Made by a program: the position numbers and the translations under genes
In this document: positions 9,574-26,972 of the stretch, piece after piece
Layout of the letters: each line of letters opens with the position of its first letter
Numbering within the stretch: the stretch's first letter is position 1
Assembly (NCBI GenBank): GCA_022843785.1
Contig: JALHMZ010000001.1
Coordinates: 83,516 to 147,515 of the forward strand
DNA from: Nitrospira sp.
GTDB taxonomy: Bacteria > Nitrospirota > Nitrospiria > Nitrospirales > Nitrospiraceae
Reading direction: 5' to 3'
DNA length: 64,000 nt
The notes under the pieces: model-generated
Told to the model about the DNA's origin: nothing
What the model saw: only the letters and a program-made list of their open reading frames with translations
The model's database searches: none

Positions 9574-10447
9574 GTCGTTCCTCCCCCGCCCACCGTCCGG
9601 GATTAAATACAATCGGGCGGATGTTGTTATCCACAAGGACCACGGCCCCCTCTGTCCGCTGGGGTCTGGCTACAACGGAGACCTGCGCCGCAGGCACCAC
9701 CAGCCGGGCCAGGAGCAGGGCGGCCGTATCCTGTCCCGTTGCATGCTCCACCAACGGAGCCAGTTTGCCGTCGAGTTCCTGCCACTGAGTCCCTTCCCGC
9801 CACGCCCCAAATACTGTCTGCCGGGCCGTATCCGCGCGTTCTGCCGGATCGGCGATTCCCGACACGTCCGGCCATCGATTGACCGGAGCCGGTGGATCCG
9901 CCTCCTTCCGGATAACCAATGTCACGGCGTATCCGTCCCGTATCCGCGAGGGGACGACCGGATCCAATGCTTCATAGGGCCCTGAGGCAAACGCCGGAGT
10001 TTTCCCTCGTTCACACGCGACAAACGTCAGGAATACATCGACCACCACACCGTTGAACGGGACTCCATGGAACCCTTGAGCCAGATCATCGTCGGATTGA
10101 GCTTCGTACCAGCGATTCAGTCTGAGACAAACGGTTCTCGGCAATTCAATCAATCGCCCCATCCGGTCGATCGCCAAACCAGGATCTACCTTGATCCGTT
10201 CCGGACGCCCCTCCGGCATCGAAGAATCAACACCGGAAGCTACAGCCGGCTCCCACATCACATGCAATCCCGCGACCGTACCGCTCCCGTACAGATAGGC
10301 CAAGGCCCTGGCCAGACGTCCGCGGTGATAGGTCTGCTCGTCGAGAAAGTCCTCGGCATCGAGCAACACGCCGGTGGCATACCAGAGACGATCCTGGGAT
10401 TCGCCTTGGGCTTGCGCTTTCGCCAGGGGATCGAGTTCGAGACTCAT
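9566..10447 (-). CDS. CIS fibre-base-like protein (293 aa)
   Basis: RLWYATGVLLDAEDFLDEQTY...GSGTVAGLHV...VDPGLAIDRMGRLI, the same N-terminal module as the two downstream genes. Confidence 0.65.
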   Translation of the reverse strand: MSLELDPLAKAQAQGESQDRLWYATGVLLDAEDFLDEQTYHRGRLARALAYLYGSGTVAGLHVMWEPAVASGVDSSMPEGRPERIKVDPGLAIDRMGRLIELPRTVCLRLNRWYEAQSDDDLAQGFHGVPFNGVVVDVFLTFVACERGKTPAFASGPYEALDPVVPSRIRDGYAVTLVIRKEADPPAPVNRWPDVSGIADPAERADTARQTVFGAWREGTQWQELDGKLAPLVEHATGQDTAALLLARLVVPAAQVSVVARPQRTEGAVVLVDNNIRPIVFNPGRWAGEERHV

Positions 10448-10797
10448 TGCGTTCCTCCTCTTCGCGGACGTTTCCGGCCCTGCGGCTTCACGGCCCCCTT
10501 CAGACTGCGCACCGGTGTAGAGATCCCCGTCCCTATCGGCTGAATCGGTTCAATCGGACTTATCGGCCTGATCGGTACCACGGGATCGATCGGAATCACC
10601 GGACCGATCGGGCCGACGATTGGCGGCGTAACCGGAAGCCGCGAAATAATCACCGTCTGAACATCCGGGATGCTCCGATTTCCCTGTGCATCCACGACCA
10701 CCAACTGAAACCGGTGGGTCCCCACGGACAAGCCGGCATCGACGTCGATGAACGGCTGCTCCGTTGTGATCGTCCGGCCCGGAACAAACGTTGCCAC
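10444..10797 (-). CDS. Half-PKD/Ig-like protein with (P-I/V-x)n and basic tail
   Basis: VGTHRFQLVVVDAQGNRS.PD..TV matches the C-terminal half of PKD domains. Overlaps the downstream start (ATGA). Confidence 0.7.
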   Translation of the reverse strand: MATFVPGRTITTEQPFIDVDAGLSVGTHRFQLVVVDAQGNRSIPDVQTVIISRLPVTPPIVGPIGPVIPIDPVVPIRPISPIEPIQPIGTGISTPVRSLKGAVKPQGRKRPRRGGTQ

Positions 10798-11152: not shown

Positions 11153-13672
11153 TTAGGCTAACCACTCCCACACGTACCGAACGAGGCGGCGGCCCTCGGC
11201 CGCCCGCGATCCTCGCGCGTCCAGCTGAAACGACCGGCCGAATCCGACGGTCTGCTCATCGCCGGCCTCGGCCACAGGAGGGCCGGATACTGTCGTCGGC
11301 ACAACCTGGGCCAGGGTGTCCAGTCGTGGATCGAGGCTCGGACTATGTACCAGCACATCGCGCCGCCCCAAACGCGAGCGCCCGACACGAACGGGACGCA
11401 CTGGTTGAGATGACCCCAGATAGGTATCGACGCCGACCAACGAGGCCGCACCGACAAGAAACGGTTCCGAAGCCGTCACCACCCGCACCGCCACATGCGC
11501 AGGAGATTCCAGATTCACGATGCGCCTGATCAAGCCCACCTCTTGCGGCTCAACCTGCTGATGCACCAGCACTGTGGCACGAAAAACCAACCGATCGAGG
11601 AAGCCCTCGACCGCCCGTTCTTCCCGCGCCGTAAGATCGAGCTCCGACGCAAACAGCGCCAAAAACTCTCGGCGTTCTTCCTGTCCCAGAAATAACGAGT
11701 CACCCACAAACGAGTTGCCGCCGACCACCAGCCCGCCCAAGAGCGAATCGTCTTCGTCCGCGAAATCGCCGCCCAGAATGGTCCCCATGGTTCGACGTAG
11801 CCGGTAATCTTCCAACACGACGATTTCGCCGCTCGCTACCGCGCCGCCGGTGGCGATGTCGAGCGCCAGCTTGAGGCCTTCCAGCGTCCCGCGTTTGCGA
11901 TAGAGCTCAGGAGCGGATGCGAGGAACCGGCGACGGCGGGCACCGGGAAAGGCCGGATCGAACGACACCCCGATCCAACTCCCGAGCCATTCCAGCGCTT
12001 CATCTGGAGTCGTTCGCGGATCGGTCAGAAGGTAGGCCGACGCAATCCGATCCTCGATAGGCGTCAACACACCTTCCATGTTGTCCAGAAACCGCTCAAG
12101 GAAATCGGATGGGGTCGCAGACTGCCCGGGCGCAAGCAACGTCTCCGCTTCATCCCCATACCTCGTCTCGTGATAGAGCTCCGGCAAATACCGGTCTCTA
12201 TAAGAGAACCGCGACGCATACGTTCGCACCGCCGCCACTTCCGGCGTCGTCCGGCCATTGCCGCTGAGCGTGACACGCACCCAGCAGTACCGCCCTTTCA
12301 CTTGCGTAACAGGACGATGCCCGCGTTGAATCAGCACCGTGAAAAGCCCTGCGCGATCCCGCACCAAGGGACAATTCAGCAGCCCGGGATAGAACGGAAC
12401 CTCCGACGCGCTGGAGACCCACGCTCCTTGTGGAACAGGTCCCTGCGCCACCATCGGCTGCCCAAAATAGTGGGGATGCCACGCGTCCTCGGATACGGGC
12501 GGCACCGCCTCCTCGCTGGCCGCCACGGCGATCACGACCGAACTATCCGGAGGGATCTCCGCTTCGAGATAGAGCCGATGCCATACGGTCTGCGAAGACC
12601 CGCTGTCGATCAGTATCGCATTCATGGCCTGCCCTTTCGTCGCAAAGGAGGGAAGCGAAAGGGCATGCAGTCCGGCGGATCCATCCACAGTTGGATAATG
12701 CGGTGGATCATTGAGCGTATGCAGAAACGGCCCGCCGGTATAGTCGGTCAAGGGGTACAAATCGCCGACCGGCTCTGCAACAAAGCCGGTCGTTCCTGAA
12801 ACCGGCTCAATCGGCATGGGGTAGACAAGGGCTTCACCCGGCACACCGATAACCAGCACAGCCAGCCGATCAAACCCGACCCATGCCACACTATAGGGAC
12901 GGCCGGCCCCCTGCAGCATGATCGCGGGGCCACGCCATCCGGTGGAATCGAGTAAACGGACGCGGGCTCCTCCTCCGGAGACCCAGATCAAGACTGCCAC
13001 GACCCCGTCGGCTCGACAGGCCAGCGCAACCGGCTGTTCATCAGATGCAAAGATAATCTGCGAGGCATCGAACAGATGCGGAGGATACGGATTCTCTGAA
13101 CAGGGTCGAACGACGTCCGGATCGTAGGGAGCAGAGGGTCGATCCGGAAACGGCAATCCCCTCACCCGACCGATCTTGCGTCGGACTCGATCCAGAACCC
13201 AGACCCCTCCGGAAGGATCCGCGGATAGCCGCCACGCAGTCCCTTCCGCCGACTCCAGCACCACCTGCGCCCATCGATCACGCGTGTCATGCAACAGGAT
13301 GCGGTCGCCCAACGCGACATACAACACATCGTCATACCCCATCGCGATGTCGGACGGAACCTGCCCGGTCGACATTGGAAGAACCGGGAACCGTCCGGGT
13401 CTGGCACCAGTCGCAACTATGGCCTGCGCCGTCGCATCCCACGATGCACGCATGCCGAATTGGTCCATCGCATCCGGCACAGACTCTAAGCGGGACAAGG
13501 CTTGGGCCTCCACCACCGCCGCTTCCATATCACTGACAACGGGGATCGCTCGCCGCCCCGCCAGCCGGAAGCGTCGGCGCACCGTGTCATACGTCAGCGC
13601 CGGTGGATCTCCTTCGATCCGCCATTGATGCGCATCGGCGAGCAACCAGTGTTTGAGTCCATTGGCGTCCAT
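11153..13672 (-). CDS. Baseplate wedge protein with phage tail protein I domain (Afp12-like), N-terminal propeller-like region and C-terminal half-PKD
   Basis: RYLPELY...FLERFLDNMEG...LTDPRTTPDEALEWLGSWIG...ELYRKRGTLEGL is the tail-I domain pattern. Confidence 0.8.
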   Translation of the reverse strand: MDANGLKHWLLADAHQWRIEGDPPALTYDTVRRRFRLAGRRAIPVVSDMEAAVVEAQALSRLESVPDAMDQFGMRASWDATAQAIVATGARPGRFPVLPMSTGQVPSDIAMGYDDVLYVALGDRILLHDTRDRWAQVVLESAEGTAWRLSADPSGGVWVLDRVRRKIGRVRGLPFPDRPSAPYDPDVVRPCSENPYPPHLFDASQIIFASDEQPVALACRADGVVAVLIWVSGGGARVRLLDSTGWRGPAIMLQGAGRPYSVAWVGFDRLAVLVIGVPGEALVYPMPIEPVSGTTGFVAEPVGDLYPLTDYTGGPFLHTLNDPPHYPTVDGSAGLHALSLPSFATKGQAMNAILIDSGSSQTVWHRLYLEAEIPPDSSVVIAVAASEEAVPPVSEDAWHPHYFGQPMVAQGPVPQGAWVSSASEVPFYPGLLNCPLVRDRAGLFTVLIQRGHRPVTQVKGRYCWVRVTLSGNGRTTPEVAAVRTYASRFSYRDRYLPELYHETRYGDEAETLLAPGQSATPSDFLERFLDNMEGVLTPIEDRIASAYLLTDPRTTPDEALEWLGSWIGVSFDPAFPGARRRRFLASAPELYRKRGTLEGLKLALDIATGGAVASGEIVVLEDYRLRRTMGTILGGDFADEDDSLLGGLVVGGNSFVGDSLFLGQEERREFLALFASELDLTAREERAVEGFLDRLVFRATVLVHQQVEPQEVGLIRRIVNLESPAHVAVRVVTASEPFLVGAASLVGVDTYLGSSQPVRPVRVGRSRLGRRDVLVHSPSLDPRLDTLAQVVPTTVSGPPVAEAGDEQTVGFGRSFQLDARGSRAAEGRRLVRYVWEWLA

Positions 13673-13777: not shown

Positions 13778-16063
13778 TCAGCAGAGATCCGGCACGACCG
13801 GAACCGCCACCCCCGACTGATCCGCAAAGGGATTCGGCACCCCTCGTAGATCATCCGGGGCCTCCTCGCCCACCACGACCACCACGCTCAATAACTCCGG
13901 CAATTGCCAGGGGTGCAGGGGCAACTGCACCGACGCGTCGGGTACCGCCCGCGGCAATCTGCTCCACTCCGCACCCTGCTGCTGGAACAAATTGATCGGC
14001 GCCACTCCACTGACTCCCGGAACGCGGGCCACAACCACTTCCAACTCCCGATCCCGCACTGAACGGCCCAATGGCCACCCCGTTCCATCAGTACCTCCAG
14101 GAGCCAACGGCCAGAGAGCACGGCGGAGTGCTTCACGCACCTCGGCCGTCACGGTCTCGCGCGACACCTCCCCTGACCCGGCAATCCTCTCACCGACGCT
14201 ACCACTGGTAAAACCGTCCTTCACTGTAATCGCGACACTCACACCTAAAGGCACATACTCGCAGCCGATTACATAGAGCTCGGTCCCAAGCGGCCGACGC
14301 GGGTCGAGCATGCCATGCACGGCTTCGAGAAACGGCCGGTCCGGCCTGGGATTCGGCAGGCCAGTCCCTTCCTTAAACGGAATCACCATGACCGACACGA
14401 CACCCGGCACCTCGAAACGCCGCTGATGCGGCTTGAACCGGGGCAGTACTTCCACACGACCCATCCGCACACCGGGTGTCCGCGCCGCCAGTTCCTGATA
14501 ATCGGTTTCCGTCACCGCCCGATCCCGATGACGAAAGAGCGCAGGAATACGCCGCTCCGCTTCTCCCAGCGTTTCTGCATCGGTGCCGCCTTGAGTCGGC
14601 AAGGTTTGGGAAATTTTCAATTTGGTCGTGACCACCGCCCCACGAAGATCGCGGGCCGCAATGGAGGTCAGACTGCCCGGAGGAAGATTCCCTGCCACTC
14701 CGCCTCCCGCCCGCATCACCGCAACGCGAATGCGCATCCCGGCCTCGGGAATGCGACCTCGCATGCCGTCTCCGAAGCGGATGGTTCCGGCCTCCCGGTC
14801 AAGCTGATAGACCGCGGCATCCCGTCCCGCCAAGGCCAGATCCTCAATCCGCTGCCAGAGCTGAAATCCACGCCCGCTTTCTTCGACGTGGATCACGAGC
14901 GACTCGGCCTCAATCGACTGACCCGGCAACTGGCATTCCTGATCGGCTGTCCCTGCACTGTGGGCAATGACCCGGTTGGTGAGGGTCTTACGCTGATCGA
15001 TCTCCGCGGCATTGATACCGACCCAACTCAACGCCAGCCGTTGCAGCGACTTTACCGTCGGGCGGATGCGAATCCATGCGACCAGCCGAGCGGCCAGATC
15101 AGCTTGGTCCAACCGAGGCGGCGCATCGCCTACCCCGGCCTTGAGGTTCGCGCGCACATCATTGCTCGGCACGCGAATCCTCGACCCAGCCGGCAGCACC
15201 AAGCGCACCACTCCGGATCGCGTCAGGTCGACAGTCGTATCGGCTGCCACATCCAGGGTCAGATAGTCCGGCTCACCGCGCTCATCTACCGTACCAATTT
15301 CCCACACATGCGGAATCCTGGCGCGGGGACCAATCTCGTCAAACAAGGCCGGAATCGTAATCGAGGGCATGACTCCGACCGACAGTACTTGCTGACCACC
15401 GCTCGCATTACGACCCAGCGTTGCACGAATCTGTTCAACCAACGCAGGCTGCAACTCACGGGTGGGTGCCTTGGGCGCAAGCAACGCCAGCCACAGGGAG
15501 CGATCCACCGTTTGCATCATCAGATCGAACCCATCCGCATCGGGCGCACCGTCTACAAAAATCGGGGTCGTCACGTACGGTGTCGGCAACGACGTCAATC
15601 GATAGACCGATTGCAGTCCGGGAACCACGGCCGCGAAATCGTTCCGTTCTTCCTCGCTCAACGGCCGTTTGTAAAAGGCTTCGGCTGTAACCGGCAAGAC
15701 CGTGAGTTCCGTTCTTGTCTCAAAGGTGACGGGCTTTTCGATCGTCGCCCGCCCCTGGATTGCCACGGACTGCGTCATGGACTCGTCGTCGATCTGCACC
15801 GTGACCAGGCCCTGAGCCGGCACGGCGGACCGCATCGGTACGCCAAGCAATCGCAGGAACGCCAGGCGCTGACGCTCCGGAATCAGATTCGCTCGATAGA
15901 GCAGCGTGTCGGTCAGCCAGGCGAACAGCTCGATGAGGGTCCGTCCGGGATCGCCCGGCCGCGGATGCGTCCATTCCGGCGTGTGGGCGGGAATCCGCGC
16001 GAGCAGTTCTTCCACCAAATCCTGATAACTGCGATCGTCGAGAGCGGGCGGACGAATCGGCAT
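13778..16063 (-). CDS. Baseplate assembly protein J-like (Afp11-like)
   Basis: PALDDRSYQDLVEELLARIPAHTPEWT...DPGRTLIELFAW; also FGDGMRGRIP, GGTDAETL and DRAVTETDY motifs. Confidence 0.92.
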   Translation of the reverse strand: MPIRPPALDDRSYQDLVEELLARIPAHTPEWTHPRPGDPGRTLIELFAWLTDTLLYRANLIPERQRLAFLRLLGVPMRSAVPAQGLVTVQIDDESMTQSVAIQGRATIEKPVTFETRTELTVLPVTAEAFYKRPLSEEERNDFAAVVPGLQSVYRLTSLPTPYVTTPIFVDGAPDADGFDLMMQTVDRSLWLALLAPKAPTRELQPALVEQIRATLGRNASGGQQVLSVGVMPSITIPALFDEIGPRARIPHVWEIGTVDERGEPDYLTLDVAADTTVDLTRSGVVRLVLPAGSRIRVPSNDVRANLKAGVGDAPPRLDQADLAARLVAWIRIRPTVKSLQRLALSWVGINAAEIDQRKTLTNRVIAHSAGTADQECQLPGQSIEAESLVIHVEESGRGFQLWQRIEDLALAGRDAAVYQLDREAGTIRFGDGMRGRIPEAGMRIRVAVMRAGGGVAGNLPPGSLTSIAARDLRGAVVTTKLKISQTLPTQGGTDAETLGEAERRIPALFRHRDRAVTETDYQELAARTPGVRMGRVEVLPRFKPHQRRFEVPGVVSVMVIPFKEGTGLPNPRPDRPFLEAVHGMLDPRRPLGTELYVIGCEYVPLGVSVAITVKDGFTSGSVGERIAGSGEVSRETVTAEVREALRRALWPLAPGGTDGTGWPLGRSVRDRELEVVVARVPGVSGVAPINLFQQQGAEWSRLPRAVPDASVQLPLHPWQLPELLSVVVVVGEEAPDDLRGVPNPFADQSGVAVPVVPDLC

Positions 16064-16066
16064 CGG

Positions 16067-16465
16067 TCAGCCTCCAACCTCGACGGTCAGTCCCAGCTGG
16101 TGGGAGACACCCGTCCGTTTCAACCGGTAGCCGATGACCACCCGCACATGCGACAGTTCTCCCGGCACCTCGGCGACCTCGACACGATCAAGCATAATGC
16201 GATCCTCCCAGCGCCCGAGGGCCTCGGATACGGAATCTCTGATCCTCCGACGAGTGGTCAACGTGTTCGGTTCATGTAGAAACTCACTCAGCCCGGCGCC
16301 GAAATCCGGACGCATCAACTGTTCCCCCGGCTGCGTTTGCAAGATGACCCGGATCGCCTGTCTGACGCTGTCGTCCAGCGACGGGAACGCGAGTCGTCCA
16401 TCGATATCGGGCTGCGGCAGGAGCGGCCAGCCGAGAGAGGGTCGAGGAAGCGCAGCCTGGGTCAT
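16067..16465 (-). CDS. gp25/GPW-family baseplate protein (Afp9-like)
   Basis: SVRQAIRVILQTQPGEQLMRPDFGAGL...RWEDRI. Start moved to ATG 16465 (GGAGG RBS, ATGA overlap). Confidence 0.92.
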   Translation of the reverse strand: MTQAALPRPSLGWPLLPQPDIDGRLAFPSLDDSVRQAIRVILQTQPGEQLMRPDFGAGLSEFLHEPNTLTTRRRIRDSVSEALGRWEDRIMLDRVEVAEVPGELSHVRVVIGYRLKRTGVSHQLGLTVEVGG

Positions 16466-17964
16466 GATTTCCTCCCTGGAATCGGGATACAGATCTTGAT
16501 GTACAGCAGCCACTGAAAAATGATGTTGAACAGCTGCAAAAATATATTCAGCACAATGAAGGCGCAAATCGTGATCAAGGGAAGGCTGAAGCTGCAGAGC
16601 CACTGGATGCCCAACTTCGGAGACGGAGTGACCTTTTTCCCGTCGGCCAGGCTCTTGGCATCGCCCTGCAACAGATTAAACAACCCCTCCGGTACGGCAA
16701 ACGCCACATTGGGTTTCATCTTCTTAAGAAAATCCTTCGTAACGTCCGGCAAGGCAATTTGCACCGGCGGAGCCCCATTATTGTCGTACCACGGAGCAAT
16801 TGTGAAAGGTTCGCTGTACTCACTCCACACTGTCTCGGGAGGACAGCGGTCGTCCTGTTTCACCCGCACGAAGGCGCGGAGGCGATACTGCCGTCCTTCC
16901 TCACCGAACCGTCCTTGCCCGCCTCCCACTTGCGCAAGGCGGGTTTGCATCGTCCCCAACACCAGCTTCGCCAAGGTCGACGCCTGCGTCTCACTCATTA
17001 CAGGCCATTCATCAGGCATAGCCTGTGAGGCGGTGCCGGAGAGATCCCCCTCCAACAACACGCTGGAGGCAGCCTTAAGAAAATCACCTGCCTTGATCGA
17101 GCCCTGTTCCCCGGTCAATACAATACTGTTGAGGCCGGCAAACAACGTGCGGGCGGCCTGCGTCTCTCCGAACGCGTCGAACTCGATGGCCACCTGTTTG
17201 AGTAGCATCACAAAGTCGGCCAATGATGCGTTCGCCGGGTCCAATTTATTCAGCGCAGTACCGGCAAAGGGAAAAGATCGAGGCCCACCGGCCTTTAAAT
17301 ACCGATGTAGATGGCCTTCCAGGTCCTTCTCCGTAAAGGATGGGAATGCCGGCGATTCCGTCATCTCCGAGCTGGTCACCGGGATCACTCCGTACAGGAG
17401 CGTCCGCCCGGTCGCACGGCAGACCTCCGGAGGGGCGATGAACAACGGCGCTTCCTGCTCCCGTAACCTGGTAACCTGACCCGTTTGCATAGCCAGCAAA
17501 CGATTGATCTCATGATGCCCGGCCGACAATTCAGGACGGCGGAAGGCTGGGTCGGGATCCCGCGTTTCATGTTGTACGTTGGAGAAGGGCACCCAACCCC
17601 GGAAAAGCCGATTCTCCTGCATCCAGGCTTCGCGCATTTCTCCACTCTTGCCGCTCGTTGAGGTACGCCGGACGACGAGACCGGCCCCGACGATTTGTTT
17701 CGGATCCAGTCGCGGACGGCCGAAGGTCAGACAGGAGACATCCAACAAAGCCAGGTGAAACGTGCGGTGAATCGGTTGAAATAATTTTAAGATCCCATTC
17801 GTATCGCGAGTCCTGGCTGCCGACTTGAGCACATCCGGCAACCCCTGCTCCCGTGAAAGCCGATCCAGCAGGGCCGGGAGAAAGTCCTGCTCGGTCCGCT
17901 CCAGAATCACCGGACCGGCAGCTGCCCCCCCTGCGCCTTGAAGACTGACCTCATGCGCTACCAT
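16462..17964 (-). CDS. Hypothetical 500 aa protein with long hydrophobic Cys-containing C-terminus (probable membrane segment)
   Basis: Translationally coupled on both sides. C-terminus WLCSFSLPLITICAFIVLNIFLQLFNIIFQWLLYIKICIPIP. Confidence 0.8.
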   Translation of the reverse strand: MVAHEVSLQGAGGAAAGPVILERTEQDFLPALLDRLSREQGLPDVLKSAARTRDTNGILKLFQPIHRTFHLALLDVSCLTFGRPRLDPKQIVGAGLVVRRTSTSGKSGEMREAWMQENRLFRGWVPFSNVQHETRDPDPAFRRPELSAGHHEINRLLAMQTGQVTRLREQEAPLFIAPPEVCRATGRTLLYGVIPVTSSEMTESPAFPSFTEKDLEGHLHRYLKAGGPRSFPFAGTALNKLDPANASLADFVMLLKQVAIEFDAFGETQAARTLFAGLNSIVLTGEQGSIKAGDFLKAASSVLLEGDLSGTASQAMPDEWPVMSETQASTLAKLVLGTMQTRLAQVGGGQGRFGEEGRQYRLRAFVRVKQDDRCPPETVWSEYSEPFTIAPWYDNNGAPPVQIALPDVTKDFLKKMKPNVAFAVPEGLFNLLQGDAKSLADGKKVTPSPKLGIQWLCSFSLPLITICAFIVLNIFLQLFNIIFQWLLYIKICIPIPGRKS

Positions 17965-18647
17965 ATGTTACCCGCTCCCGGGGTATACATAGACGACACG
18001 ACCGTCGTAGCAATCAGCGTGTCGCATTGGACCACGCCTGAAAACTTGGACATCCCGGCGTTGACTGTCACCATGCCCGCGCTGACCTCGACCTGACTGG
18101 CCTCCACCGTTACTTTGGCCGAGGCCTGAATCGTGACGCCGCTTGTCTCCATCGTGACGGTATTGCCCGCAGCCTCCAGCTTGATCTTTCCCCCGGCCTC
18201 GTCGGTCAACGTCCCCTTCACTCCCGCAGGCGTCTCAAACACGATCCGCTCCTGCCCGCTTCCTTCCTCCACGATAGAAAACTTTGTGCCGGCCTTTCCC
18301 GTAATCGTCCACCGGTCCACACGATCGCCCGGCAAGGAATCCGGCGCCTGATCGCGACTGTTCCACAACCCACCCACCACCATGGGAAAACGCGGATCGC
18401 CATTCAGGAACACAACCAGCACCTCGTCCCCGACGTCAGGCAGCAGGAATGCCCCCTTGTTGCCGCCCGCAAATGGTACAGCCACACGCGCCCACACCGG
18501 CCCATCCTGGTCGTCAAGCCCATCACAGTTGAGCAAGCGGATCTGTACCCTCGTCAACCCGTCGGGATCTTCCACCGACACGACCTCGGCCAGATAACTC
18601 GCGGTCCACAGACCGGCCGGTATCTCGAATCGATTCCCGACCGTCAT
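17958..18647 (-). CDS. Spike protein gpV/gp5-like (OB fold + short beta-helix)
   Basis: WARVAVPFAGGNKGAFLLPDVGDEVLVVFLNGDPRFPMVVGGLWN. Start moved to ATG 18647 (ATGA overlap). Confidence 0.9.
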   Translation of the reverse strand: MTVGNRFEIPAGLWTASYLAEVVSVEDPDGLTRVQIRLLNCDGLDDQDGPVWARVAVPFAGGNKGAFLLPDVGDEVLVVFLNGDPRFPMVVGGLWNSRDQAPDSLPGDRVDRWTITGKAGTKFSIVEEGSGQERIVFETPAGVKGTLTDEAGGKIKLEAAGNTVTMETSGVTIQASAKVTVEASQVEVSAGMVTVNAGMSKFSGVVQCDTLIATTVVSSMYTPGAGNIW

Positions 18648-19732
18648 GACCGTCCTCCCCAATAGGCGCATTCCGCTTCGAACTGCGTGCGATACCCGAT
18701 CTCCAGATCGTAGCGATGACTCGCCCGCGTCACGTAATAGGTATTGCTGTAGCGCGGCCCGATGCCGGCAACTGTCACATGCGTACCGACCCTGATCTCC
18801 GGATTACCCTCCGCCGTGCCGTCCAGGCAGACGAACCGGCGGGCCCGTTGGTCGAATCCACTGTCTGCGACCGCCTGGGCTTCGTCCTGCGTGCGCACCG
18901 TCAGATGTCCGATATGCTGAGTCCGATTGATCGAGGCTTGCTCCAGCATCTCGGCCCCTGTCGCCCCTTCGCCAGGACCGCGATGCGAGCCGGTGCTTTC
19001 CGCAGTCAGTCGTGCCCCTTGCGCGGCATCCCATCCCGCAACCGTCACCTTATTCGTCTGATGGACCAGATCAGCCAACACCCGGACCCTCCGAAGCTGG
19101 CCATACATATGCAACTCCACACTTCCTCTCCGCACATCCTGTCGAGGCGATACGTGTAGTTCGCCGCCGACCACCTGCACGTCGCCGTCGTAGCGTTCGA
19201 TCACCCGACGAAGAAAGGCCAAATCACTTTCGTTGAGCTGCACCCAGGTCCCGATATTGTCCGTCATGCCAGTCACCACCGGTTGAAGACCCAGGCGGCC
19301 GGCTATCTCCCGTGCCAAATCCGCGATCGCCATCTCATCGTACGTCTTCGTGCGACGGGTCATACGCGCCTGCTGCCCGGCATCCTCAGCCAAGACGGTC
19401 AATTCCGGCGGCCCCTCTTCTCGAAAATCCGCCTCCAAGCCCGTAATCATGCCCTGAAAGATTTCCATCGGCGACGAGACAGGCCCGGCATACACGGTGA
19501 TAGGCTTGCCTAGCGTCAGGATCGCCCCATCCTCGAACGCAAAGGAAGCGCTTCCGTCGGAATCGCTCGCCACATTGCTCAGTCGCAGTTGCAGCGTTGA
19601 GAGGCCGCCCTCCTGCTCGGTAACCTCCATCCCGATCAACAGCTCGGATACTTTCGCATACGACTGTTGATCGATCTGGACCGTCGGTCTTGCGCTATAG
19701 ACTGCGCTAGGGCTGATGGGACGTTCACTCAT
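18644..19732 (-). CDS. Hub protein, phage late control D / gp27-like (N-terminal half of VgrG/Afp8)
   Basis: QLNESDLAFLRR..ERYD, NKVTVAGWD and GTAEGNPEIRVG.V...GIGPRYSNTYYV motifs. Confidence 0.88.
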   Translation of the reverse strand: MSERPISPSAVYSARPTVQIDQQSYAKVSELLIGMEVTEQEGGLSTLQLRLSNVASDSDGSASFAFEDGAILTLGKPITVYAGPVSSPMEIFQGMITGLEADFREEGPPELTVLAEDAGQQARMTRRTKTYDEMAIADLAREIAGRLGLQPVVTGMTDNIGTWVQLNESDLAFLRRVIERYDGDVQVVGGELHVSPRQDVRRGSVELHMYGQLRRVRVLADLVHQTNKVTVAGWDAAQGARLTAESTGSHRGPGEGATGAEMLEQASINRTQHIGHLTVRTQDEAQAVADSGFDQRARRFVCLDGTAEGNPEIRVGTHVTVAGIGPRYSNTYYVTRASHRYDLEIGYRTQFEAECAYWGGRS

Positions 19733-19775: not shown

Positions 19776-19934
19776 CTAATCGGCGTGAATCCGCGCCGCC
19801 CGTGTGGCCAATCGGCGCAACTCGGCAGCGACATCCGGACGTGACGACGAAGCCTGCGTCGCCTGCGGTCGACTCTCCGCCGGCGCAGGTTCCGACTGCA
19901 CATCGGCGATCACTTCATCAATCACCACCGCCAT
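19776..19934 (-). CDS. Small hypothetical CIS protein (52 aa), below the ORF-track cutoff
   Basis: Manual translation MAVVIDEVIADVQSEPAPAESRPQATQASSSRPDVAAELRRLATRAARIHAD. It fills the gap between the tube initiator and gpD; the ATG follows GAGAGG. Confidence 0.65.
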   Translation of the reverse strand: MAVVIDEVIADVQSEPAPAESRPQATQASSSRPDVAAELRRLATRAARIHAD

Positions 19935-19937
19935 GAT

Positions 19938-20987
19938 TTACCTCTCATCAAATCGAATTTTGGAGGCCAAGGTGGTATGAACTCCGACATCGGCGTTCAA
20001 ACTGGCGGAACCTTCCACTTTCGCCCGTCCTCCAACCCCAAACTGAGCCCCTTGATCAGTCGCCAAACCTACCGAGTCGGCACGTGGCAGCAGGGACCTG
20101 GAATTCAGCCCAGGTGGCACAGATCTGCTTGACGATGTCGTGCGCAATCCGGCAAACGCACCCTGAGTCGCGGTGACCCCTGCGGAAGCCGATCCACCGA
20201 TGGTTACCCCTGCACCCGCACCGACACCACCCGACAAACCTGCTGATATGCCCCCCCCGAACGACACTCCCACACCGGCTCCGGCTGATGCTCCGATTCC
20301 TCCGCTGATACCAATCCCCAACCCGGCCCCACCCGATGCGAACGCCGCAGGCCCACCAAGCGACACCGATGCCCCCAACGAGATCGGCCCACTGGTAAAT
20401 CGCAATGTCTCCAGCCCGTTGGCAAGGCCCACGCCACGACCAACATCTCCGACACCGGCCATGGCTGAGATCCCGGTCACGCCAGCACTGGCTGAGAGAG
20501 ACAACACAGCCCCCTCCTCGCTGCCCTCACCGGCTCCGGAACCTGCCCCATCCTCAGCAAACACGGCTTCCTGCCGAACCATGCTCAGATTCACCTTGGC
20601 CCGCAAAGGGACGCCGGAAGGCGAGAAGAAATCGATCGTCTCCTGGTAGGACTGAACCATCCCCTGAAAGACGAACGTTCCCCACTCAAACCGCACAATG
20701 GCAGGAATTCGCTGTTCATCCGGCTCCATGAGCACCGCGATCCGCTGCGTCACCTCGCGCACATCCGTCCCCGCCCCGGTCGTATCAAACATGAGTTCCA
20801 TCGTCAGCGTGGCGGAACTCCCGGTAACATACTGTTTGGTGTCGCCCGATTCGCCGCTTGTTCCCAACGTGTTGGCAATGGAGAGCTGCAACGACGTCGG
20901 GTTGAAATGCACCGTGATCGCCTGATCCTGCTGAGGTCCGCTTTGCGGGGTAAAGACGGCTTTTTGTACTCGCTGGCTGTCGCTCAT
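19938..20987 (-). CDS. CIS tube initiator (Afp7-like) with Gly/Ala/Ser-rich C-terminal region and no LysM
   Basis: ITVHFNPTSL...LMFDTT...PAIVRFEWG..VFQG...FFSPSGVPLRAKV.L is the CIS tube-like pattern. Confidence 0.75.
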   Translation of the reverse strand: MSDSQRVQKAVFTPQSGPQQDQAITVHFNPTSLQLSIANTLGTSGESGDTKQYVTGSSATLTMELMFDTTGAGTDVREVTQRIAVLMEPDEQRIPAIVRFEWGTFVFQGMVQSYQETIDFFSPSGVPLRAKVNLSMVRQEAVFAEDGAGSGAGEGSEEGAVLSLSASAGVTGISAMAGVGDVGRGVGLANGLETLRFTSGPISLGASVSLGGPAAFASGGAGLGIGISGGIGASAGAGVGVSFGGGISAGLSGGVGAGAGVTIGGSASAGVTATQGAFAGLRTTSSSRSVPPGLNSRSLLPRADSVGLATDQGAQFGVGGRAKVEGSASLNADVGVHTTLASKIRFDER

Positions 20988-26956: not shown

Positions 26957-26972
26957 AGCAAACCCCATGCCT
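26957..26972 (-). promoter_or_regulatory. Sigma54 (-24/-12) promoter of the CIS operon
   Basis: Minus-strand AGGCATGGGGTTTGCT has exact GG-N10-GC spacing and matches GGCAY-N5-TTGC. It lies ~36 nt upstream of the GTG at 26921, next to a sigma54 activator gene. Confidence 0.75.

Follow-up and report, generated by a model that had tools for sequence, protein, structure and literature searches.

The subject of this analysis is a stretch of 64,000 nucleotides from Nitrospira sp. (contig JALHMZ010000001.1, positions 83,516 to 147,515; hereafter the window) and, within it, a gene of a contractile injection system (CIS) that is called X below (P0001 in the analysis). The operon to which X belongs was delimited by Pfam scans, and the order of its genes recurs in 80 loci from genomes and on 8 IMG/VR contigs. 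Its first part encodes a Pvc16-like cap, an unknown protein of 249 aa, sheath, tube, sheath 2, tube 2, a tube-like protein with a Gly-rich part and a 52-aa open reading frame (ORF). The second part consists of gpD, gpV, X, gp25, J, I, p117, p293, p537, p1269, p491 and an AAA+ ATPase, where the proteins named by their length (117, 293, 537, 1269 and 491 aa) had no family match in the Pfam scans. The operon, X with its parts, and the spike and baseplate genes around it are located as follows:

709-26653, minus strand: whole CIS operon
18644-19732, minus strand: gpD, a gp27-like hub in an ORF separate from gpV (split VgrG); Phage_GPD, E 7e-8
17958-18671, minus strand: gpV, a gp5-like spike with oligonucleotide/oligosaccharide-binding (OB) fold and beta-helix; Phage_base_V, E 5e-22
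17961-17987, minus strand: C-terminal motif of gpV, YTPGAGN(I/V)W, at least 95% conserved over 53 loci (gpV alignment columns)
16462-17964 including the stop codon, minus strand: gene X, CIS core protein of 500 aa (ORF and translation)
16765-17964, minus strand: X residues 1-400, globular alpha/beta domain with conserved C78, C182 and C374; AlphaFold2 block with a predicted local distance difference test score (pLDDT) of mostly 75-98
16603-16764, minus strand: X residues 401-454, linker with the motifs LPD, KPNVAF-VP and LFN-L (conservation table), a strand at 420-424 and short helices (model)
16528-16602, minus strand: X residues 455-479, W-x-C-x-F motif followed by a membrane-competent span at about 461-479, LPLITICAFIVLNIFLQLF
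16465-16527, minus strand: X residues 480-500, where the helix goes on, bearing a polar stripe (N/D480, x484) and W485, then K-I-C-x-P-x-P and a short basic tail
16067-16465, minus strand: gp25-like baseplate wedge; GPW_gp25, E 5e-23
13778-16063, minus strand: Baseplate J-like wedge protein; Baseplate_J, E 4.5e-12
11153-13672, minus strand: P2 gpI-like wedge protein; Tail_P2_I, E 1.5e-9

A first-pass annotation of the DNA had placed a 500-aa ORF at 16462-17964 and quoted its C-terminus; both proved exact, the gene being on the minus strand and its translation ending in LGIQWLCSFSLPLITICAFIVLNIFLQLFNIIFQWLLYIKICIPIPGRKS. The same annotation described the gene as lying between gpV and gp25 and coupled to both, which a reading of the DNA bore out. 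The gpV gene ends in GGT AAC ATA TGG TAG, and the ATG inside this stretch is the start codon of X, so that the two genes overlap by 7 nt. At its other end, X finishes in AAA TCA TGA and overlaps the ATG of gp25 as ATGA, and a GGGAGG Shine-Dalgarno sequence is located within the final codons of X. The automated ORF listing begins gp25 at an upstream GTG (16603), whereas it is the ATG at 16465 that is conserved as the start. Throughout the family, the 7-nt overlap between gpV and X is found in at least 23 loci and an overlap of 4 or 1 nt between X and gp25 in 42 of 79. These arrangements indicate that X is co-translated with the spike gpV and gp25. In addition, X is judged to be a genuine gene rather than a chance ORF because it has at least 789 homologous clusters and strict synteny.

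The family is large. The 789 clusters came from a word-indexed search and all of them are named 'hypothetical', and an exhaustive profile search yielded at least 1,494 representatives at 50% identity, 523 of them at E<=1e-30. The top 150 profile matches are all complete proteins that finish in the conserved C-terminus. Counting one genome per species, X is encoded in 398 species genomes from about ten phyla, comprising Nitrospirota, Acidobacteriota, Chloroflexota, Cyanobacteria, Gemmatimonadota, Myxococcota, Planctomycetota and Verrucomicrobiota as well as Alpha-, Beta- and Gammaproteobacteria. In all 76 loci that include upstream sequence the gene comes after gpV, and in all 80 it comes before gp25; the complete gene order is identical in the 80 fetched loci. 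There is one copy per genome and none outside a CIS locus. A phage origin or phage use of X was rejected, since no match was found in 50,697 phage records and the 8 IMG/VR matches, where X holds the same position (8/8), are pieces of CIS operons without head genes.

An extra gene between gpV and X was considered for loci in which the script had reported gaps of 95-731 nt and was discarded: in locus L035 the gap is a start-codon miscall, with an MV codon overlapping the gpV stop, and the remaining mid-size gaps are probably the same artefact. Inserts of about 710-730 nt between gpV and X, which break the usual 7-nt overlap, were observed in Pseudorhodoferax/Variovorax loci (L056, also L058 and L068); the intergenic insert of L056 (about 710 nt, 9231-9943) carries repeats and no PAAR-like ORF. 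A seemingly natural fusion of X to gp25 (P0192, 611 aa) turned out to be a frameshift artefact with an out-of-frame, low-complexity tail. In the divergent relative L089 the C-terminal module is kept and the N-terminal domain has drifted far.

The gene content of the operon allows the machine to be assigned to a subtype. Subtype IIb of the dbeCIS catalogue is defined by gp27 and gp5 parts in separate ORFs, a single Afp11 gene, an Afp12-like gene and the absence of afp10, and is the only subtype reported to lack afp10/PAAR (Chen et al. 2019, Cell Rep, PMC6899500). In the window, Phage_GPD (18644-19732) and Phage_base_V (17958-18671) are encoded by two ORFs, there is one Baseplate_J protein (13778-16063) and one Tail_P2_I protein (11153-13672), and neither PF05488 nor PF14107 is present in the genome, nor inside the locus in 30 other genomes. 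By these published gene-content criteria, the Nitrospira operon matches a complete CIS of subtype IIb. The co-occurrence of X with PAAR, a check that the first-pass annotation had proposed, was examined: PAAR (PF05488) was found neither in the operon nor in the whole Nitrospira genome, nor in 20 of 30 other X-carrying genomes, and in the rest it lies far from the locus. DUF4280 was likewise missing from the operon and the genome, and its few matches in other carriers lie outside the fetched loci where this can be judged. In the loci examined X is never adjacent to a PAAR gene. The absence of PAAR from the X-carrying loci fits the report that afp10 is lacking only in subtype IIb (PMC6899500). 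The gene is restricted to CIS loci, and none of the refuting observations named in the first-pass annotation was made, as far as they could be tested.

The same survey states that the lineage-II subtypes each carry two or three extra conserved genes without a recognisable domain (PMC6899500). X fits this description of subtype-specific conserved genes, and it is most likely one of those of IIb, matched by description. The survey names no such gene, and the membrane helix, the Cys motif, the novelty of the fold and the fixed gpV-X-gp25 position are not described there. As for the 'PAAR slot' in which the first-pass annotation put X, the term is approximate. X does occupy the spike/gp25 junction in a PAAR-less lineage; in the afp/pvc order, however, the PAAR gene afp10 follows gp25 (afp9) (Table 1, PMC6899500), whereas X precedes it. 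PAAR tips (Afp10, Cis10, T4 gp5.4 and the PAAR proteins of T6SS, the type VI secretion system) resemble X in that X adjoins the spike and gp25 genes and is present where PAAR is absent. X differs from them: a PAAR motif was not detected in it even at E up to 10, its fold is unmatched, it is about five times larger and it ends in a hydrophobic helix.

No known relative of X emerged from the searches. Pfam (to E 10), NCBIfam and PHROG gave no match, nor did a profile search of the PDB, and a comparison of the AlphaFold model with PDB and BFVD by Foldseek returned nothing at E<0.001, with template modelling (TM) scores around 0.1. On these nulls a cryptic PAAR or other known domain was rejected. 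AlphaFold2, run on the full-length protein with a 98-sequence alignment, produced a model with a mean pLDDT of 85.8 and a predicted TM score (pTM) of 0.75, in which mixed alpha/beta structure up to about residue 400 is followed by the linker, a short strand (455-459) and a helix (461-486). The last 50 residues have a low pLDDT (50-70) in this model. On this modelled structure, the N-terminal domain has a new fold, with no relative in the PDB and BFVD libraries. Outside the tail, C78 and C374 are invariant among the 98 homologues and C182 is present in at least 90% of them. In the linker (401-454), a variable Gly/Lys-rich stretch precedes the helix.

The conservation of X is concentrated at its C-terminus. 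Over 53 loci, the mean pairwise identity of the N-terminal domain is 0.46 and that of residues 453-496 is 0.75. The best 44-residue windows of other operon proteins reach 0.74 in gpV, 0.74 in gp25, 0.81 in the tube, 0.90 in gpJ (N-terminus) and 0.91 in the sheath (C-terminus). The C-terminal block is therefore the best-conserved part of X and equals the most conserved stretches of gpV and gp25. A 42-residue motif, W-x-C-x-F-x-x-P-(22)-W-(4)-[KR]-x-C-x-P-x-P, is ungapped in 400 of 436 family sequences. Among 254 distinct versions of the motif W455, C457, F459, P462, A468, W485, C492, P494 and P496 do not vary; seven of these nine (all except A468 and C492) are fixed by the search pattern itself, but in the 98-sequence alignment, to which no such filter was applied, these nine also vary little or not at all. 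W455, C457, F459, P462, I464, T465, A468 and L472 are invariant. The tail had been called Cys-rich, and it does hold three cysteines in its last 46 residues (C457, C467 and C492), each in at least 99% of the 98 homologues.

Hydropathy confirmed that the C-terminal stretch is hydrophobic: 19-residue Kyte-Doolittle (KD) means exceed 2 from residue 453 to 484, a value reached by no other protein of the operon, and X is by this measure the only operon protein with a membrane-type segment. The first-pass annotation had suggested that the stretch was long enough for a helical hairpin. Its length would indeed suffice, but the evidence argues against a hairpin. On the scale of Hessa, which is a simple sum and not a topology predictor, residues 461-479 have a summed free energy with a family median of -0.83 kcal/mol (KD 2.5), showing that a membrane-competent segment is genuinely present, whereas residues 481-499 score +11.4 kcal/mol and are not membrane-competent, because of N/D480, a polar residue at 484 and K490 (97/98 sequences). 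AlphaFold2 applied to residues 397-500 alone (80 sequences) returned an uninterrupted helix from 449 to 491, with pLDDT 77-94 over 457-486, consistent with the full-length model; both AlphaFold2 models represent a monomer without a membrane. Further, the strongest covarying pairs in the motif (471-475, 480-484, 473-477 and 484-487) have the i/i+3-4 spacing of a helix. The pairs 471-475 and 473-477 cross the supposed hairpin turn and those placed symmetrically about 473 are weak, in scores that ignore phylogeny. Because free energy, AlphaFold2 and covariation agree, a single continuous helix with one membrane-competent span at about 461-479 is favoured as the model of the C-terminus, and a two-helix hairpin of the colicin type is rejected.

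Other properties of the helix bear on what it may do. The polar residues N473, S/Q477, N/D480 and Q/R484 lie on one helix face (resultant R=0.75, permutation p=0.025) and the invariant positions are spread all round (R=0.31, p=0.24). A helix with three faces, for packing, lumen and lipid, was for this reason abandoned, as only the polar stripe is significant and the invariant positions are unclustered. In the Nitrospira sequence the core helix has no charged residue over about 35 positions. The tail after P496 has a median of 4 residues and at most 18, with a net charge of +1.7 that is positive in 90% of members, and the flank before the helix is slightly negative. The first-pass annotation had seen no obvious signal peptide, in agreement with an N-terminus whose family consensus is not hydrophobic and which the model builds into the fold as beta-strands. 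X thus has the hallmarks of a tail-anchored protein: no signal peptide, a single competent helix in the last 50 or so residues and a short tail.

Taken with the position of the gene, these properties mark X as a fixed structural or accessory core subunit of the PAAR-less subtype-IIb CIS, not as payload. The alternative term 'effector', used in the first-pass annotation, does not hold for a single-copy core gene in an invariant order. The case against a payload or toxin associated with extracellular contractile injection systems (eCIS) is that the position and architecture of X are invariant and that five DUF4157 cargo genes are located elsewhere, at the 3′ end of the operon. Effectors of eCIS, by comparison, differ between loci in presence and sequence and are placed 3′ in their operons, often in connection with DUF4157. 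The C-terminal helix of X is probably the means by which these machines engage a membrane, either that of the producer (as an anchor) or that of the target (as an inserting tip).

A precedent is provided by TssL (DotU-like), which consists of an N-terminal domain in the cytoplasm plus one C-terminal membrane helix and helps to dock a contractile baseplate on the inner membrane. X shares this plan of an N-terminal domain and a single C-terminal membrane-type helix. However, it has no Pfam or NCBIfam match to TssL/DotU and no TssM/TssJ partners, it adjoins the spike gene and its helix is far more conserved. Membrane-tethered CIS are also known outside the type VI systems, where Cis13/Cis12 of the thylakoid-anchored CIS (tCIS; PMC8894136) and CisA of Streptomyces (PMC12237407) are lineage-specific proteins that couple the CIS baseplate to the membrane of the producer through one transmembrane helix. 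Cis13 is a tail-fibre-like trimer at the periphery of the baseplate, and CisA is bitopic, has a periplasmic domain of about 160 aa and is absent from purified particles (PMC12237407). In contrast to both, X has at most 18 residues beyond the conserved motif and is encoded between the spike and gp25.

With these precedents, X is tentatively read as a tail-anchored subunit that couples the spike and the inner baseplate to the membrane of the producer. X would be made in step with gpV and gp25, and its N-terminal domain of about 400 residues would sit at the junction of spike and inner baseplate. In the producing cell, tail-anchored insertion into the cytoplasmic membrane would be the default fate of the tail, because X lacks a signal peptide and the operon encodes no recognisable chaperone that would take up hydrophobic segments (none of the chaperone families was detected by the Pfam scans). 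X would then tether the spike end of the machine to the cytoplasmic membrane of the producer, and the machine would fire through the producer's envelope, comparable to the docking of the type VI baseplate by tail-anchored TssL. Sequence-specific conservation, together with the one-sided polar stripe, makes it probable that X would act as a homo-oligomeric helix bundle.

Several findings weigh against a producer-side anchor. By the positive-inside rule, the positive tail (+1.7 in 90% of members, with the near-invariant K490) and the slightly negative N-flank disfavour, if weakly, an N-in/C-out tail-anchor in the energised membrane of the producer. Plain membrane anchors drift in sequence. The helix of X is too conserved for a simple anchor, and the conservation all round it (R=0.31, p=0.24) suggests tight protein packing or a specific activity. 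DUF4157 cargo and a nearby Amidase_2 gene are typical of released (extracellular) systems. Lastly, rate covariation names no partner: the partial correlations with gpV, gpI, sheath 2 and the tube-like protein are alike (0.32-0.37), and the search for a partner of X by this route was given up as unspecific.

The charge bias that disfavours the anchor suits a helix inserted from outside. According to this main alternative, possible though rather doubtful, X would sit on the blunt end of the gpV beta-helix instead of PAAR, a single copy of which binds that end in VgrG/gp5 spikes, and the helix of X would be shielded in the baseplate until firing. The helix would then be driven into the cytoplasmic membrane of the target, where several copies would form a bundle or leak or open a way for tube and cargo. 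The negative N-flank and the positive tail fit such an N-out/C-in insertion into an energised membrane, and the one-sided polar stripe and the extreme, indel-free conservation suit a defined oligomeric membrane assembly. The gene itself follows the spike gene directly, with the 7-nt overlap, and gpV is a beta-helix spike of the VgrG/gp5 type. Among solved structures, those nearest to gpV are the gp5-like parts of Cis8 from tCIS (7b5h), AlgoCIS (7aef), Afp8 and Pvc8, and the solved relatives are PAAR-capped; in tCIS the density at the spike tip has been assigned to the PAAR-like Cis10 (PMC8894136). In these X-carrying systems PAAR is absent from the operon, from the genome and from 20 of 30 other carriers. 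Over 53 loci the C-terminal region of gpV, FSG-V-C...YTPGAGN-W, reaches a conservation of at least 95%, and this near-invariant motif may be a docking site for X or, alternatively, a self-contained tip. The eCIS-type cargo and the nearby amidase, which could release particles, also agree with delivery from outside. On the other hand, no chaperone is detectable in the operon, so that a helix with a KD of 2.5 would be expected to enter the membrane of the producer first, and the size (500 aa) and non-PAAR fold of X make it geometrically ill suited to being a sharpened tip. Phages meet the same problem with their tails, and yet none of the 50,697 phage records uses X. No hypervariable receptor-binding part was seen. 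Hydrophobic helices that belong to a toxin or are associated with a spike and that enter a target membrane, as in the T6SS prePAAR/Eag-dependent effectors and the pore-forming colicin hairpins, are comparable to that of X, but they depend on Eag chaperones or an amphipathic shield, and for X neither could be detected. Colicins differ further in having two membrane-competent helices where X has one, and X is an invariant core gene rather than variable cargo.

It is also conceivable, although unlikely, that the helix never meets lipid but packs within the machine, for example against gpJ/gpI, in the cavity of the hub or, as a central bundle, beneath the spike; X would then be a subunit of the inner baseplate or of a spike cage. 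The conservation on all sides of the helix and not on one face, and the absence of indels from the 42-residue motif, agree with such burial. If X were an oligomer, the three invariant cysteines of its tail could make up a metal or disulfide site, and the low pLDDT of the tail in the full-length monomer (50-70), compared with the confident helix obtained in isolation, suggests that a partner is missing. Other CIS build spike cages or plugs from lineage-specific parts. Contrary to this, the insertion free energy of 461-479 is favourable and about 35 positions carry no charge, membrane anchors are classically recognised by a hydrophobic helix at the terminus with a basic tail behind it, and rate covariation gave no partner.

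Least probable is an assembly factor or regulator outside the mature particle, such as a membrane nucleation platform or a firing trigger like CisA, which is required for firing yet is not in purified particles; the N-terminal domain of X is among the fastest-evolving of the operon (identity 0.46), but, in contrast to cisA, X is embedded in the block of spike and baseplate genes with an overlap on either side, and its presence and architecture are strictly conserved.

What is new in these findings is that a known type of machine has an undescribed, lineage-defining subunit of membrane type. A bolder proposal, offered as a speculation that may well fail, is that the IIb CIS form a distinct mechanistic class in which X is the only membrane component and its invariant, Cys-bearing helices make up an oligomeric transmembrane bundle with a polar core on the axis of the spike. 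Such a bundle would serve either as a gate in the producer membrane for a PAAR-less spike or as a pore delivered by the spike to the target membrane. The IIb systems are found in hundreds of species, in groups as diverse as Nitrospirota, Cyanobacteria, Myxococcota and Proteobacteria. CIS are being engineered for protein delivery, and whether they act as released, cell-anchored or cytoplasmic machines is decided by lineage-specific parts at the baseplate. Subtype IIb is widespread and is the only catalogued subtype without PAAR, yet no studied member, no paper on its function and none describing X was found in the literature searched; a paper on the CIS of Roseiflexus was set aside because it concerns a Streptomyces-like lineage. 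X is the obvious handle on how the IIb class meets a membrane and how its spike works without PAAR, because it is missing from Pfam, lacks structural relatives, lies at the spike and is the one membrane-type protein that the operon encodes. The family is large and uniform and occurs in culturable hosts (Variovorax, Thauera, Roseateles, Sorangium and Phormidesmis), which makes these proposals directly testable.

The remaining features of the operon and its surroundings, within the window and in the region before it (L081), are the following:

1-698 of the window (cut) and L081 5154-12714, minus strand: DUF4157/eCIS_core genes, five tandem paralogues of 423-520 aa
L081 3185-4213, same strand, after the DUF4157 genes: astacin-like metallopeptidase with PPC domain
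L081 1377-2282, same strand, after the DUF4157 genes: Amidase_2+SH3 protein (N-acetylmuramoyl-L-alanine amidase)
19776-19934, minus strand: 52-aa ORF filling the gap between the tube-like gene and gpD
19938-20987, minus strand: CIS_tube-domain protein with a Gly/Ala/Ser-rich, low-complexity C-terminal extension of about 200 residues
27257-28267, minus strand: sigma-54 activator directly upstream of the operon; Sigma54_activat, E 1e-61

The DUF4157 genes come directly after the AAA+ ATPase, and each of the five paralogues has the eCIS_core/DUF4157 domain at residues ~116-204. DUF4157 has been described as an N-terminal marker of eCIS-associated toxins, placed at the 3′ ends of operons (bioRxiv 10.1101/2020.09.22.308684). 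The five genes continue the operon at its 3′ end and probably supply this Nitrospira CIS with its own cargo or toxins. The Amidase_2+SH3 protein and the astacin-like peptidase that follow could have a role in particle release or as effectors. Upstream of the operon, next to the sigma-54 activator, a GG-N10-GC-like site (AGGCATGGGGTTTGCT) was noticed at 26957-26972, about 300 nt before the first CIS gene; a scan of the window for sigma-54 promoters gave matches that do not exceed chance.

Within the operon, the 52-aa ORF may be a candidate for the Afp6/Cis6-like 'spike plug', a gene that subtype IIb reportedly keeps. The neighbouring Gly-rich CIS_tube-domain gene is kept in all related loci, and its Gly/Ala/Ser-rich extension possibly serves as a lumen filler or in length determination. 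Among the distal genes, p293, p537 and p1269 (window 4209-10797, minus strand) seemingly have a common N-terminal domain, and residues ~44-390 of p1269 match a p537-sized ORF of other genomes at about 30%. Both p117 and p537 close with Pro-rich P-[IV]-x-P repeats and, after these, a basic tail. The distal proteins, p1269 included, are conserved over their full length in 30 of 30 genomes with no hypervariable tip seen, in keeping with a machine that does not follow variation in the receptors of its targets. In this genome the CIS locus is present once and, among 24 genomes of the same genus, X was found in only one other, as a fragment at a contig end. The locus is thus an accessory one with a patchy distribution in the genus, which suggests that it was acquired horizontally.

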